In this document: piece by piece, positions 41,521 through 64,000 of the stretch
Layout of the letters: each line of letters begins with the position of its first letter
How positions within the stretch are numbered: position 1 is the stretch's first letter
IMG/VR virus record: IMGVR_UViG_3300050120_000210
Location: 64,001-128,000 of that record
DNA from: a virus
DNA: 64,000 nt
Strand: one strand, 5' to 3'
Notes under the pieces: generated by a model
Seen by the model: only the letters and a program-made list of their open reading frames with translations
Database searches by the model: none
Told to the model about the DNA's origin: nothing
Program-made: the position numbers and the translations under genes

Positions 41521-41990
41521 GTCCGGTGTGGGGCACGGTTAGAAAGAGATTGTTCCGGTCACGGACGGCTTCGGCCGACCAAGACCAGCACAGAAACCGA
41601 AAGGCCAATGTGTAGAGGGTAACCAAAGGAACTATCTAGTCACAGAACCATCGGTTCACCTCGTGAGTTACTGAGCAAACAGTGGTTAGCGCCACAAGGT
41701 TACTCAAAAAACAACGAATCAGATCGTTAGTTACTGAGCAGGTATTCGGAGGATCGAAGAGCAACGCCTCACCGCCGCGCCCGTAGGTTCACGATAGGTC
41801 AAGGGTCCGCCCTTATAGCGGAGACGAGAGGTAGCCGTCTTAAAAGGACTAACACTACCCGGAGACGAGATTACTCCGAAACCCGCAAGGGCCAACCCAA
41901 TCTCAGGTCTCGCTTCGGACCTGTGACATTCGCGTTCGCGACACGATGGCACTTTAAGGGCCGGAAGTTTTGACCAGCTTCCGGCCCTGA
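41521..41990 (+). ncRNA. Unclassified large ornate structured RNA (~470 nt)
   Basis: No credible ORF; cUUCGg, GAAA, GUAA and GCAA tetraloops on the plus strand; long-range helices 41639-45/41921-27 and 41745-51/41874-80. Confidence 0.7.
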
Positions 41991-56760: not shown

Positions 56761-56948
56761 CAGAAGTCGCGCTCCCATTCCTCGTCGGACGCTTCATCGA
56801 GCATCTTCTTGGCGTCAGCACGCCACTTGTCCCGTTGCTTGGATGACATGGCGCCCCACGACGGAGACAGACCCGGCGGCGCGGCGCGCACATGGCTCTC
56901 GTAGAGAGCGATGGCCACGAGTTCGAGATGAGCAACATCCTTTTTCAC
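56760..56948 (-). CDS. Small hypothetical protein
   Basis: VAIALYE..W......W..A pattern. Confidence 0.6.
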   Translation of the reverse strand: MKKDVAHLELVAIALYESHVRAAPPGLSPSWGAMSSKQRDKWRADAKKMLDEASDEEWERDF

Positions 56949-58480
56949 AGGACGCTCCGCAAGAGTTCGATGGATCGCTCACGACCATAGGCGGCGATAA
57001 ACGAGCCGAAGCGCGGCCCTTGTTCGTCGCCGAAATAGACCTCGTAGATGGCCTTGAACCAGTCGCGCAGCGGCTCGAACATGAACGACTTGCCAATCTC
57101 GTAGACATGCCACTGGTAGCCTTCACCATCCAGTTCATCACTGAGGTTTTCGAGGGTGTCAGCCAGTTCGGAGAACGCTCGTGCTTCATACTCGGTCGGG
57201 GGGCGGCGGGGCTTCCGCTCAACATGCTCACGCACGTAGGCGATGACACCGGGAACAAGGCTCCCAATGAATGCGCGGTCGCCAACACTCAGCGACTTGT
57301 ATTGGTCGAGGTAGTTCATCAGTGTTTCGGCATCCTGCGCGCCCGAAACGGTCGCGAGGTTGATGAGCAGGCTATAGCTCACGTCCGCGTTGTAGGGCGG
57401 GGGCGAGCCTTCATGAACGTGCCACACGGGCGAGTCGAGGCGAGCCTTCCCTTCGAGCGCCGGGAAGGCGGTAAGAGCCTTGAGATATTCATCGGTCACA
57501 CGAGGGATCACCGAAGGCGTAAACGCCTTCGCCGAGCGCGGCGACATGAACATGAACTGTGCCAGTGGGCCGGACGCACTATAGCGGTTCCACGTTTCCG
57601 TGGTCATGCCGTTGCCCAGCGACTTCGAAAGCTTGCGGCCTTCGTCGTCAAGGAACAGTTCATAGAAATAGGTCAACGGCGCCTTGCGGCCGACCGCCTT
57701 GCAGATACGGGTACTGAGCACGGCGCTGTCGATCAAATCCTTGCCGTGCATCTCGTAATCGATGTTGAACGCCATCCAGCGCATCGCCCAGTCAACCTTC
57801 CATTGAAGCTTGACCTGACCACCAAAGATGCTGGTCTGATGAATCGAACCGTCTTCGTCGGTGAACGTGATTTCGTAATCGCCGAGAAGACACACGTTCG
57901 CATTGTCCAACACCTTGCCGGTGTTGGGGCTGAGCGGCATGAACGGCGAATAGGTTTCGGCACGATTGCCGCCTTGACCACCGAGCGACGGCAGCATGAT
58001 CTTCATGACCGCGTCATAGTGATCGTAGATGAGCTTCAGAGCTTCATTGAATCCACCACCGGCATAAATCTCCGTGGACGACACGAACTCGTAGCCCACT
58101 TCCATGCGGTCCAAGAAATGTCGAAGAGCGATGTTGTTTCGGGCGGCGAAACTCGAAAACTCACCGAACGGATCACACACACGCGTCAACGGAAGACCGA
58201 TGTCTTCGCTCATTGATGCGGGCATACCGTCCGGTACGCGGCGGAAGCCGTCGTAATCATCCGAGAAAACGATCAGACGAGTTTCGACCTTACCTTCGGT
58301 CAGTTCCTCGAACGCGCAGCGGACCATGTTCGTGCGAACGACTTCACCGAACGTGCCGATGTGCGGGGCGCCAGAAGGACCGAAGCCAGTCTGAAAAGTC
58401 ACGAGGGGTTGCCCTTCCACACGCTGCAACAGCGCGCGGGCTTGTTCGAACGGCCATGACTTGGCTTCGAGGGCACTCAC
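56945..58480 (-). CDS. lysS: Class I lysyl-tRNA synthetase
   Basis: WPFE.A, TGFGPSGAPHIGTFGE, KLQWKVDWAMRW, GKDL, KLSKS, GPRFGSF; AAGGAG SD before GTG 58480. Confidence 0.96.
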   Translation of the reverse strand: MSALEAKSWPFEQARALLQRVEGQPLVTFQTGFGPSGAPHIGTFGEVVRTNMVRCAFEELTEGKVETRLIVFSDDYDGFRRVPDGMPASMSEDIGLPLTRVCDPFGEFSSFAARNNIALRHFLDRMEVGYEFVSSTEIYAGGGFNEALKLIYDHYDAVMKIMLPSLGGQGGNRAETYSPFMPLSPNTGKVLDNANVCLLGDYEITFTDEDGSIHQTSIFGGQVKLQWKVDWAMRWMAFNIDYEMHGKDLIDSAVLSTRICKAVGRKAPLTYFYELFLDDEGRKLSKSLGNGMTTETWNRYSASGPLAQFMFMSPRSAKAFTPSVIPRVTDEYLKALTAFPALEGKARLDSPVWHVHEGSPPPYNADVSYSLLINLATVSGAQDAETLMNYLDQYKSLSVGDRAFIGSLVPGVIAYVREHVERKPRRPPTEYEARAFSELADTLENLSDELDGEGYQWHVYEIGKSFMFEPLRDWFKAIYEVYFGDEQGPRFGSFIAAYGRERSIELLRSVL

Positions 58481-58493
58481 GTCGAGACTCCTT

Positions 58494-58763
58494 TTAGGCG
58501 GCGGCCAATTCACGTTGCCGCGCCTTGCTCAATTGGTCAGGCGACGGGCGATTTCGCCAGTCGTATACCAAATCGATCTGCTTGAAAACCACCGGCGTGG
58601 CAGTCTCCGCACAGGGTTGGCCATTGTCCAACATGATGTGGCCACGGCCACCGTTCGCCGGACCCGGCACGATGCCCCCGCCGAACAGACTGGTCATGAA
58701 CGCCAGACGTAGTTCACCATTATGCCGGACTAAGGTCCACGGCTTGTAGAGATTGCTTCGCAC
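58494..58763 (-). CDS. Hypothetical protein
   Basis: AAGGAGG SD. Confidence 0.7.
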   Translation of the reverse strand: MRSNLYKPWTLVRHNGELRLAFMTSLFGGGIVPGPANGGRGHIMLDNGQPCAETATPVVFKQIDLVYDWRNRPSPDQLSKARQRELAAA

Positions 58764-59904: not shown

Positions 59905-60429
59905 CTATTTCTTGGTGGTGATTACCGTGGTCACAACTGCCGCCGGAGCGACAGGCGCGCTGGGAACGACAACTGTTGGTTTGACTACCGGGCACCAGAT
60001 AGACTTGGTGCCGCCGTCATATGGCTTGGCGAACCCGCCATCAACCATGAGCTTTCCGTAGTCTCGGCCATCCTCAAGCGTAACCGTTCCGAGCAGGCGG
60101 CCGTATTTGTCATGCTTGGTGGTGTCGTAGTGCACAACGACCGTCGAACCCAAACGAATGACCGTCTTTGCGTAGGCGGACGCTGCTTCTCCGAGTTTCA
60201 CTTCGCATAGGCTCTTGCCGGGTGGCATACGCTTTTCGGGGGTATCGATACCGTCGATCCTCACATCATCGGGATTGTAAGGCACGGGCCAACCGGCGAT
60301 CACAACCTTGATGGTGTCGCCGTCGATAACCTTGATGACTTTGGCTTGGTAGTCGATTGTCGCTGCGGCGGCGGGAGCAACTCCCAATAGATTGAAAGCG
60401 GCCAGCAGGATAAGTGCATACTTTTTCAT
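59905..60429 (-). CDS. Thermonuclease (SNase-family) with signal peptide
   Basis: VIDGDTI, VRIDGIDTPE, DKYGRLL, G.A..Y.GG. Confidence 0.9.
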   Translation of the reverse strand: MKKYALILLAAFNLLGVAPAAAATIDYQAKVIKVIDGDTIKVVIAGWPVPYNPDDVRIDGIDTPEKRMPPGKSLCEVKLGEAASAYAKTVIRLGSTVVVHYDTTKHDKYGRLLGTVTLEDGRDYGKLMVDGGFAKPYDGGTKSIWCPVVKPTVVVPSAPVAPAAVVTTVITTKK

Positions 60430-61644: not shown

Positions 61645-61717
61645 GGGCCATCACTTGTCAGGAATGAACCTTCAAAGTAGCCCGTGCACGGACCTATCTG
61701 CAATATTTTCGTAAACC

Positions 61718-61868
61718 AAAATAGGCCCACCGGGTGGGCACATGGCGTGACCGGTGGGCCGTAATGGCTTCGGACGGGCTGCCATCAACCGTTCAGGAGC
61801 CCGGCGCCGAACATCCTGACTCAGGGGTATGTCCTAAAAGGGCAGTGACCGTTCTGATCCTTACCCTA
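61718..61868 (-). ncRNA. Candidate ~150-nt structured RNA ending in a terminator
   Basis: Hairpins GGGTA/TGCCC, TCAGGA/TCCTGA, ATGGC/GCCAT; CGGGCT/AGCCCG possible pseudoknot; GGCCCACCGG/CCGGTGGGCC plus U-rich tail. Confidence 0.45.
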
Positions 61869-61874
61869 GACACG

Positions 61875-61905
61875 AAAAAGCCGCCCCGGATTTGCCGGAG
61901 CGGCT
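61875..61905 (-). terminator. Terminator of the GOLLD-like transcript
   Basis: AGCCGCTCCGG/CCGGGGCGGCT-TTTT. Confidence 0.8.
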
Positions 61906-61954
61906 GGGAGTCCCGCGCTAGTCGGGATATGAGAACTGCCGGAGCAGTTTGATG

Positions 61955-63105
61955 TTAAAGCCGTGAGACTACAGGCTTAATGACTGGCCTTCCGAGATTA
62001 TAGCCCACTTGCGATGGACCTTCCCCGATCATCCACCCTCTGCTCTTGCGAGTCAAAAGGTAACCAGCCGATGCCGCCTTTTCCCTATCGAAGCCCGAAG
62101 GCATAGGCGAGTGGCTTATCTCGCGTCGTAGTGTGTCCTCGGCGGTTCCTTCTCCGTTGACCATCGCTGGCCATTCAGGGTTGCAGCCCCTACGAAAACC
62201 TTCCCACCAACGTCCGGTTGCCTTGCGAGCTTCCGACCGTCTCGGTTCCAAATCGCCACCCGAAGATGACGACCCAGCCGAGAATTAGGCATCTTGTTAC
62301 ACACTACCGGGGCAGAACTTTGCGTTTTTCTAAGACAGTTGGAATTGAACCAACGACCTCATCCTATGCAGGGATGCGCTCTACCAGAGTGAGCTATATC
62401 GCAATCCACCAAGACGTGCTGCCCCAGTTGCTTCACCAGCCTTTCAGCCGACAAAATACAACACGCCTCATCCCTTTCATCCGGCTAAGACTACTCAGGT
62501 GTCCTTTTGGACCTAGTGACGTTTTCACGCCCCAAGACCCTGAAGACTGCCACCCGCCCTAAGCTGCGAAGCCTCGGACCTGATGACTACCCGTTAACTC
62601 TCGACCATGGACGTGCTTTGCATGTCTCGGTGCAGGACGCAAACCCCGCTTGGACCGACCTGCTTTCCCCACCGGCGAACCGACAAGGGCATCGAGCCTA
62701 GTCCTATCCCCTCTCAGGGACCAAAACGCACATCGTCCGATCTATCTCCTATCCCGAAGGTAGAAGACCCTCTTTAGGAGGGTAGTTCGGGCCTCTTTGG
62801 ATGGACTACAGTTGCCTGTAGGGACGGTATGTGGACCTTCCGCCCTTATCCCACCTCGCGGCGGGTTATCCGATTATACTGGCGCCAAATCGCCAGTTCT
62901 CAACACCCGTCCTATCGGTCGAACGAACTACCCCGCACATCGACCGAAGCCGACGTGCAAAGTGATCCAGTAGGATCGAAGAGACGTTCCGCACGCCGCC
63001 CGAAGGCGACTTAACCCGACCGAAGCCGAGAGGCACGGAGTGCCGAAACTTGTGTGCTAGGAGCGGGTTTTCCCGCTCTCAGCGAAATTTTTTGGTCTGT
63101 GACCG
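61955..63105 (-). ncRNA. GOLLD-like giant ornate RNA (~1.15 kb)
   Basis: Promoter TTGACC-N17-TAGGTT; many UUCG/GNRA hairpins with minus-strand G-U pairs; segments resembling GOLLD as recalled (GUGUUGUAUU..AGCAAC..GCAGCAC, CUGCCCCGGU, UAUAAUC, UGUAGUCUCA); embedded tRNA-like domain. Confidence 0.75.
62331..62403 (-). tRNA. Degenerate tRNA-Cys(GCA)-like domain inside the GOLLD-like RNA
   Basis: Intact D arm, anticodon arm CATCC-CTGCATA-GGATG and T arm GTTGG-TTCAATT-CCAAC; weak acceptor stem, U37, no CCA. Confidence 0.7.
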
Positions 63106-63182
63106 AAACACCAACCTAACAACTCGCCATTTTCTGGTCAACTACTTTTTACGATCTCTCGTAATTATTTTCGTTCACCAGA

Positions 63183-63505
63183 TGGTGGAAGCCGTTGGGA
63201 GAGCGCCGCTGCCCCAGCCGTGATTTGGAAAGTAGCGACCCCTTTCGGAAGACGCAATATCCTTTTTCGCAATTTCGTGACGAAGCCTGTGGATAACTCG
63301 CAAACGAAACAACGAGGGGTCGTCAAGCCGTTTGGCCCGGCATTCTCGTTGAGCCAGCAGCCTCGTATCTTGATGACTGAGAGCAAACTCCCGCCTGTGG
63401 GAATGGCGTCCCCGGCACGTTCCCGAGGCCCTCCACTCAAAACCGCACAAGGCTCCAAAGCCCGCCGGTCCACAGCCCGTGTCATACCACGGCGCCACTC
63501 GTCCA
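63183..63505 (-). ncRNA. Unclassified ~320-nt structured RNA
   Basis: Promoter TTGACT-N17-TAATCA; 5'/3' closing helix; CTGTGGA/TCCACAG; several hairpins whose G-U pairs work only on the minus strand. Confidence 0.6.
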
Positions 63506-63605
63506 GTTCTGATTAGCAGACAACAAGTTACCAGTCAATCTGCGCGAAAACTCCAATTTTGAGTTTCGATAAATACTCGAAGCCTAATTGGATCATCTCC
63601 CTTCA

Positions 63606-64000
63606 ATGACACTGCGTCTCACAACTCTGAATCTATCAGGATCGCTCACAGTGGGTAGGGATACCAATCCCGCTATCATGTGGGTTGCTCCGATGAACAA
63701 GGTTCTGGGTGCATTCAACGAAGGCGACGAGATCGAAACCGTCTTCAAGGCGACCGGCAAGAACCTCACCGCGCCCATCACCTATGAGCTTCACGTTGGT
63801 TCGCTGCCGGACGGCATCAGCTTTGATGAGACCAGCGGTTTGATGAGCGGTATTTTCACCGATCAAGTTGGCCTGTTCGATATCATCATTCGCGCGCAGA
63901 GTGGCGGAACGTTCCTCGATCATCCGTTCCGGCTCATCACCGGGCCGCATCCGTCGCCTGTCTGGATCACGCCTTCAGAGATTCTTGATTTTGGAAACGT
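63606..64000 (+). CDS. Second Ig-repeat (He_PIG-like) virion protein, partial
   Basis: Manual translation ..PITYELHVGSLPDGISFDETSGLMSG..PVW; ATAAATA at 63569. Confidence 0.8.
   Translation, partial: MTLRLTTLNLSGSLTVGRDTNPAIMWVAPMNKVLGAFNEGDEIETVFKATGKNLTAPITYELHVGSLPDGISFDETSGLMSGIFTDQVGLFDIIIRAQSGGTFLDHPFRLITGPHPSPVWITPSEILDFGN

Follow-up and report, generated by a model that had tools for sequence, protein, structure and literature searches.

We examined if the gene-free DNA upstream of a phage GOLLD RNA holds a second structured RNA and, if so, where this RNA begins and ends, what fold it adopts and how it relates to GOLLD. GOLLD is among the largest of the bacterial and phage non-coding RNAs, and its function has been unknown since 2009. 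Its 5' region (1-420 in env-38) is the less conserved part, followed by a variable linker, with tRNAs in some cases, and by a 3' region that is conserved universally; the RNA builds a 14-subunit, RNA-only cage (PMC12286853). The window, i.e., the whole stretch of 64,000 nucleotides that was analysed, belongs to a single virus contig of 149,124 bp, in which it covers bases 64001-128000. An original prediction from the letters of the window had placed an unclassified, multibranched RNA of ~320 nt on the minus strand, upstream of GOLLD. Comparison of six sequences confirmed that an unclassified, multibranched, minus-strand RNA is situated upstream of GOLLD; its extent and most of its helices had to be redrawn. 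This upstream RNA belongs to a family of structured non-coding RNAs that had not been described before and is not in Rfam 15; no earlier description of it was found in the searchable literature.

Locus and relatives of the upstream RNA

Both structured RNAs lie within a gap without genes at 61645-63587, and on the minus strand the first ORF downstream of the upstream RNA is not met before 61644. One side of the gap is bordered by a plus-strand gene for a 2125-aa Ig-domain protein (start at 63588); on the other side are small minus-strand genes, followed by an SNase-like nuclease gene, a tRNA and a class I lysyl-tRNA synthetase (LysRS) gene. The phage LysRS gene (56945-58513, minus strand; PF01921, E 9e-100) is kept in synteny in lineages L045, L048 and L050, and a tblastn match to it was absent among 50,697 phage records. 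A sequence ATAAATA, similar to the TATAAATA late-promoter motif, is found on the plus strand at 63569-63575, 13-31 nt upstream of the start of the Ig-domain gene (TTG 63588 or ATG 63606), and falls in a block that is conserved in L008.

The first relative, L008, is a 14-kb metagenome contig that was obtained with the downstream 173-aa protein as anchor. It aligns over the whole island (blastn, 78% identity), with identities of 76-94% over 63528-63381, 48-62% over 63380-63241, 74-80% from there to 63142, and 82-100% in the GOLLD 5' region, compared with ~40-78% in the flanking coding DNA. A wider protein search with contig look-ups added four more syntenic lineages, L045, L046 (identical to L047), L048 and L054. 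The syntenic copies in these four were detected by a two-sequence CM (window plus L008) with E values of 3e-12 to 8e-8; with a six-sequence CM the syntenic copies scored 105-133 bits, and a search with this model over 320 kb of loci returned the six members only. The order giant Ig-domain gene, upstream RNA, GOLLD is common to all six lineages, and the distance from the upstream RNA to the start of the conserved GOLLD 3' domain is 979-1042 nt in every member.

Among the loci examined, the upstream RNA was never found without GOLLD. The CM found no upstream RNA at the GOLLD loci of Erythrobacter phage vB_EliS-L02, Caulobacter phage phiCbK, L003 and L043, and CM R2 gave no copy in L001, L003, L043 or L044. 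At anchor identities of 73% or less, L003 has kept GOLLD and is missing the upstream RNA, and L005/L057, L058 and L060 represent other gene neighbourhoods without the RNA island; the records behind L003 and L005 held no copy of the upstream RNA. Nothing similar to it was detected by blastn against phage GenBank records, no further copies came from exact or degenerate pattern scans of IMG/VR contigs and GTDB genomes, and a GOLLD-clade pattern applied to GTDB genome contigs returned nothing for the upstream RNA. The N-terminus of the giant gene, used as an anchor, gave nothing in viral contigs, and its matches in the protein collection were all at 35% identity or less. Three matches to the pattern GCGCYGTGG...CACRGGCTRTG (L051-L053) were rejected as chance occurrences inside coding DNA. 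Another region of the window, 41521-41990 (plus strand), had no Rfam match at gathering thresholds and no upstream-RNA copy by models R1 and R2, and is therefore unrelated to the upstream-RNA family.

Coding status and fold of the upstream RNA

Three overlapping ORFs of 98-107 aa span the upstream RNA, which would fit the view that the stretch is not a functional RNA, i.e., that it is a small protein gene, a DNA regulatory region for divergent promoters, or chance structure in a GC-rich spacer. The coding scores of these ORFs were negative, -0.12 to -0.26 compared with +0.25 to +0.43 in neighbouring genes, and their GC1/2/3 values were flat, unlike those of all neighbouring genes. The ORFs are not preserved in L008, matches to Pfam and PHROG were absent, and no protein homologues were present among 5.8e9 clustered proteins; protein-level conservation was thus looked for and not seen.

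Known RNA families fared no better. No Rfam family was matched at E<=10 by 63183-63505 or in four relatives; the RNase P, tmRNA and group I intron models were likewise unmatched at this threshold (window end, four relatives), and ARAGORN reported neither a tRNA nor a tmRNA over 63000-63700, so that the RNA is not RNase P, tmRNA or an intron, in agreement with the original remark that the conserved motifs of RNase P and tmRNA are absent. A known-family match, sought by this Rfam check, was not found. The GOLLD model RF02032 matched 61959-62469 only, and matched neither the upstream RNA of the window nor that of four other members.

When folded as a single sequence, 63183-63505 was no more stable than dinucleotide shuffles (MFE z 0.08 for the minus and 0.07 for the plus strand), so that the earlier fold, by itself, was not beyond chance; this too is in line with a non-functional stretch. 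So are the counts of compensatory pairs from two-sequence alifold, which do not discriminate, since diverged coding controls yielded 1-13 such pairs; energy z-scores and the six-sequence data were used for this reason. The window-L008 consensus fold of the 5' half of 63183-63505 gave z -4.5 on the minus vs -1.0 on the plus strand; the 3' half gave 0.12 (minus) and -0.40 (plus), and coding controls -0.2 to -1.4. The 3' half of the interval 63505-63183 originally assigned to the RNA thus scored like coding DNA in this comparison, and the 3' boundary is moved to 63279. In a scan of the full window-L008 alignment the upstream-RNA domain reached z -4.7 (E -60.6) and GOLLD windows -2.5 to -7.1, such that the domain behaves like GOLLD and unlike most of ~29 coding windows. 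Low consensus-fold z values were also noted for coding windows at 60194-60393 (plus strand, -3.9) and 57299-57498 (plus strand, -3.5), and beyond the stretch at the window-equivalent 65511-65704 (plus strand, -4.4). These may represent chance outliers, or they may be embedded structures.

In the CM-fitted alignment of the six sequences, which belong to one clade and offer limited phylogenetic depth, 92.6% of cells were paired, vs 74% when shuffled and 41-49% when partners were slid; both-side changes occurred in 29 of 45 pairs, and none of 500 shuffles equalled the observed values. An alignment of this kind is adjusted to the model, and the test was repeated by plain MAFFT plus RNAalifold. This recovered P2-P7 (38 pairs, 24 of them with compensatory change) at a consensus energy of -35.2 vs -10.0 for shuffles (z -9.8). 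G-U cells outnumbered A-C cells by 27 to 1 and the plus strand reached only -17.6, which together show that the structure is a minus-strand RNA and not the leader of the divergent plus-strand gene. The search for homologues with covariation, as originally proposed, therefore returned five more copies, in metagenomic phage contigs, and the core helices P2-P7 covary strongly across the six. With covariation far above the shuffled and slid controls, the 27:1 ratio, helices that still pair where their sequences are fully replaced, and ORFs that score negatively, are unconserved and lack homologues, a non-functional or coding reading of the stretch is largely refuted, and we regard it as very improbable even though the adjoining linker holds operator-like DNA motifs.

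The partner of the 5' end was sought by comparing the first ~16 nt with the following 300 nt in each of the six members. In four of the six the best partner was the homologous distal site, at +206 to +252 and directly past a C-rich motif. In the window, where this distal pairing comprises 6 bp with one G-U, two other partners (+294 and +181) give stronger duplexes. The resulting helix, P1, reads GACGAG/UUCGUC in the window, GACGAGC/GCUCGUU in L008, GGAUAGAUGG/CCAUCUAUUU in L054, UUGAG/CUCAA in L048, UUGAGG/CCUCAA in L046 and UGAUUG/CAAUCA in L045. When each RNA was cut at P1, the unconstrained MFE contained P1 in all six; with standard pairs throughout, this sets the window RNA at 63503-63279 (Table 1). 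A U-rich stretch follows P1 in several members.

Within P1, the P2 hairpin is altered at one pair (C-G to U-A in L008 and L054), and P3 has compensatory changes in three pairs. The stem under the GAACGUG loop of P6 differs in sequence between lineages and the loop is constant: the apical stems are CCUCGG/CCGGGG, CUUCGG/CCGGAG, CCG/CGG, GGGGU/GCCCC, UCGGGU/ACCGGA and GCAAC/GUUGC, and the distance from the loop to the CRYAGGC junction is always 16 nt. P7 is replaced by AAAGG/CCUUU in L045, L046 and L048. The 3' arms seen in individual folds are lineage-specific; helices 8 and 9 of the window and L008 have 4 compensatory changes, and the arms of L045, L046 and L048 include a hairpin with a YUUGGAN loop.

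Several of the pairings first proposed gave way in this comparison. Only in the window does GAG.GGCGCCGT/GCGGCGCTCTC, the proposed closing helix, form the best 5'-end duplex (-17.4 kcal/mol, +294); its 3' strand reads GAGACACT in L008, with three mismatches, and it is absent in the other relatives. For the long inner helix, which had been drawn with the distal UCCACAG, the changes in L045 (CUAUG/CAUAG) and L054 (CUGCG/CGCAG) fit only the proximal CCACAG, and the suggested CGACCCC/GGGGTCG pseudoknot is broken in L008. Two candidates of our own were also discarded: a proximal closing helix GACGAG.GG / CC.CUCGUU (63319-63311), good in the window and L008 and without counterpart in the other four members; and helix 1 of the first model (AGUGGC/GCUGCU), weak across the six sequences and superseded by P1.

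A direct repeat, CCACAGGC, is present on the minus strand at 63395-63402 and 63287-63294. The proximal copy is the 3' strand of P3, and in L045, L046 and L048 it can instead pair with a downstream GYYUGUG; in the window, L008 and L048, the distal copy is situated just ahead of the 3' strand of P1. On the letters of the repeat, alternative folds would be possible.

Table 1. Positions of the upstream RNA, its parts and its neighbours in the window.
Feature	Position	Strand	Basis or remark
Upstream-RNA promoter	63510-63538	-	-35 TTGACT 63538-63533, 17-nt spacer, -10 TAATCA 63515-63510
Conserved structured RNA, ~225 nt (221-257 nt in relatives)	63279-63503	-	CM matches, covariation, alifold, strand test
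P1, 5' strand GACGAG (partner 63284-63279)	63498-63503	-	Standard pairs in 6/6, four different sequences
P2 hairpin, CCGUG-loop-CACGG	63477-63492	-	Sequence almost invariant: GCGCYGUGG...ACACRGGCU
Three-way junction	63395-63475	-	P3 (63475-63470 with 63400-63395) around P4-P5 and P6 arms
P4-P5 arm	63469-63442	-	Compensatory: P4 5/5, P5 4/5 pairs
P6 arm	63438-63401	-	Compensatory: 10/13 pairs
P6 loop, GAACGUG, 7 nt, contains self-complementary ACGU	63416-63422	-	Invariant in 6/6
P7 hairpin, GGGAG-UUUG-CUCUC	63379-63392	-	4/5 pairs compensatory
Variable 3' arms	63285-63378	-	P8/P9 in window and L008; other arms in L045/L046/L048
P1, 3' strand UUCGUC	63279-63284	-	P1 in free MFE of all six
Linker, conserved sequence blocks, no conserved fold	63142-63278	-	Six-way alignment, alifold only -7.9 kcal/mol
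GOLLD promoter	63113-63141	-	-35 TTGACC 63141-63136, 17-nt spacer, -10 TAGGTT 63118-63113
GOLLD RNA	61959-63106	-	5' region ~63106-62470, Rfam-matched part 62469-61959
First intrinsic terminator, past GOLLD	61879-61905	-	Same layout in L054, L048

Promoters, linker and GOLLD

Upstream of the RNA, all six members have a promoter motif of the sigma-70 type, made up of TTGAC, a 17-nt spacer and a -10 element starting with TA. The -10 matches TAnnnT in L054, L048, L046 and L045, and its final T is missing in the window (TAATCA) and L008 (TAATCG); a promoter scanner independently predicts the L054 copy (TTGACT-17-TATCTT). P1 begins 4-7 nt past the -10 in every member. We infer here a transcript of the upstream RNA, the ends of this transcript, and its read-through into GOLLD.

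The order past P1 is also the same in all six members: AAAAAAGUAGUUGAC, a variable 17-18-nt spacer, TAGnnT and GGUGUUUCG. This second promoter block is predicted by the promoter scanner in L054 and L048, and it also precedes GOLLD in L003, which is without the upstream RNA. It marks the GOLLD start at ~63106, ~400 nt past the start of the upstream RNA. A conserved promoter, TTGACS-N17/18-TAGnnT, is thus situated between the two RNAs in each of the six members, and the upstream RNA is not part of the GOLLD 5' region.

The linker from P1 to the GOLLD promoter is ~125-190 nt across the six members. It includes a near-palindrome, CCACCATCTGGTG (CCACCA-TC-TGGTG; 63188-63176, minus strand), ~45 nt upstream of the GOLLD -35. 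L045 and L046 share this element with the window, L048 has kept it in part, and in L008 it is degenerate. The 2-nt spacer rules out an RNA hairpin, and the form of the element suggests an operator to which a dimeric DNA-binding protein could attach. The CTTCCACCA once taken as a possible CCA end is half of this near-palindrome; it reads CCUCCAAGA in L008, and the site is ~95 nt beyond the P1 3' strand. An acceptor-like helix with a conserved 3' CCA, as would be expected of a tRNA-like RNA, was not seen. Directly before the A-tract and -35 of the GOLLD promoter is a GNRA mini-hairpin of 4 bp (63162-63151, minus strand), which covaries as ACGA-GAGA-UCGU in the window, UCGA-GAAA-UCGA in L008, CUGA-GAAA-UCAG in L048 and L046, and CUGA-GAGA-UCAG in L045.

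GOLLD is downstream of the upstream RNA in all six members. The Rfam RF02032 match at 61959-62469 (minus strand) scored 143.4 bits (E 3.5e-39) against a gathering score of 150, and several clade members scored 130-145 bits; with scores just below this cut-off, default annotation would miss these GOLLDs. The GOLLD 5' region can be aligned with that of L008, of L003 and of the Erythrobacter phage. It is ~640 nt in the clade (62470-63106) vs ~420 nt in env-38 and L043, and in L043 it starts directly past a CDS; identity to L008 over 62894-62448 reaches 82-100%, well in excess of that in the adjacent genes. In every GOLLD locus examined (window, L008, L045, L046, L048, L054, L003, L043 and L001) the GOLLD linker contains a tRNA-like insert (38-57 bits for Rfam tRNA), which is at 62403-62330 (minus strand) in the window. 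Behind the GOLLD terminator there is a moderately conserved stretch, 61718-61868 (minus strand; window-L008 alifold z -1.4), with a further terminator-like hairpin at 61739-61725.

Between the upstream RNA and GOLLD, no intrinsic terminator was found in the window, L054 or L048. This result bears on the possibility that the upstream RNA is a free-standing small RNA of ~225 nt, released by processing past P1 or by a non-canonical or factor-dependent stop, and acting in trans on a host or phage target independently of GOLLD, with which it would only share the RNA island. Such an RNA would suit a conserved promoter of its own that places the transcript start at the first P1 base, paired 5' and 3' ends by which the RNA is closed at a similar length in each of the six lineages, a separate promoter for GOLLD, and the U-rich stretch past P1 in several members. 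The missing terminator argues against it, as do the failure to find the RNA without GOLLD, the near-constant distance to GOLLD, and a linker that carries conserved blocks too; we consider it rather unlikely.

The same missing terminator weighs against a cis-acting leader, which, like a riboswitch or attenuator, would sense a ligand or protein and set read-through from the distal promoter into GOLLD. The RNA is positioned, as a leader should be, where a long predicted non-coding transcript begins, its compact multi-helix junction has invariant unpaired positions as in aptamers, the P1 5' strand of the window and of L008 could pair with either of two other 3' sites, and the two copies of CCACAGGC could permit alternative folds. 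Yet there is no terminator/anti-terminator pair downstream, the other four members have not kept the alternative P1 partners, and GOLLD's own promoter means that such control could only be partial. Riboswitch models were unmatched at E<=10, and a terminator before GOLLD that could serve as expression platform is absent. A leader is, in our estimate, improbable.

Relation to GOLLD and to known systems

The six-way comparison shows a conserved, minus-strand, P1-closed multi-helix RNA fold that is preceded by a promoter motif and occurs in strict linkage with one GOLLD subtype. As criteria for the family we propose the P1-closed fold, P2, the three-way junction, the GAACGUG loop, P7, the promoter, and GOLLD ~1 kb downstream, all of which were found in the six lineages. 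On balance we favour the reading that the upstream RNA is a GOLLD-coupled module, and that transcription from the distal promoter yields it, at least in part, as the 5' end of a long RNA; co-transcription of the two RNAs from that promoter is possible. Transcripts from the distal promoter would start at P1 and, without a terminator, would run into GOLLD. GOLLD would then have two forms, i.e., alone when made from the proximal promoter, or with an extra self-contained 5' module and the ~125-190-nt linker when made from the distal promoter. The internal GOLLD promoter counts against this coupling, in that GOLLD does not need the upstream transcript.

The strict linkage to one GOLLD subtype, along with the invariant hairpin and loop, suggests that the module acts with GOLLD. 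The invariant P2 stem and GAACGUG loop, as conserved sequence, argue for a specific partner, and partner binding may be favoured over coding or classic riboswitch control. The partner that the module may bind could be a protein, GOLLD itself, or the module's own copy via the palindromic ACGU in the loop. When GOLLD was searched for sites complementary to the GAACGUG loop, the only conserved CACGU was GOLLD's own paired, universally conserved strand. We propose tentatively, as a possibility and not as an expectation, that the upstream RNA represents a new class of phage structured RNA that is a dedicated partner of the GOLLD nanocage RNA, and would dock on, be carried by or be packed in the assembly, or self-associate via the palindromic loop. 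If this partner reading were true, the GOLLD-type assemblies of this clade would be two-component RNA machines.

An RNA that folds separately, has a promoter of its own and is passed on together with one GOLLD subtype gives experiments a new way into GOLLD, and it shows that the RNA islands of phages need not be limited to the ornate RNAs and tRNAs known so far. The term "new" applies here to the RNA family, as known from sequence.

Riboswitch aptamers of the multi-helix-junction type, such as that of the lysine riboswitch (RF00168), are of similar size, with a terminal P1 that closes a multi-helix junction, invariant unpaired nucleotides, and a position at the transcript 5' end. The upstream RNA is similar to them only in architecture, with a phage LysRS gene nearby; unlike riboswitch aptamers, it has no expression platform, and a non-coding RNA with its own promoter is downstream. 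ROOL is among the large phage or tRNA-island RNAs (Weinberg 2017, PMC5737381). Like ROOL and other RNAs of this kind, the upstream RNA is phage-encoded, near tRNAs and translation genes, and highly structured; unlike ROOL, it is ~225 nt in place of ~580 nt, is known from one clade and six sequences, and has no Rfam match to ROOL. From GOLLD (RF02032) it differs in that the GOLLD model matches it neither in sequence nor in structure, with upstream-RNA models conversely matching no part of GOLLD, and in that it lies upstream of the conserved GOLLD promoter and is closed by its own terminal helix. It resembles GOLLD in that both are ornate multi-helix RNAs on the same strand of the same phage RNA island, and the two are always co-located.
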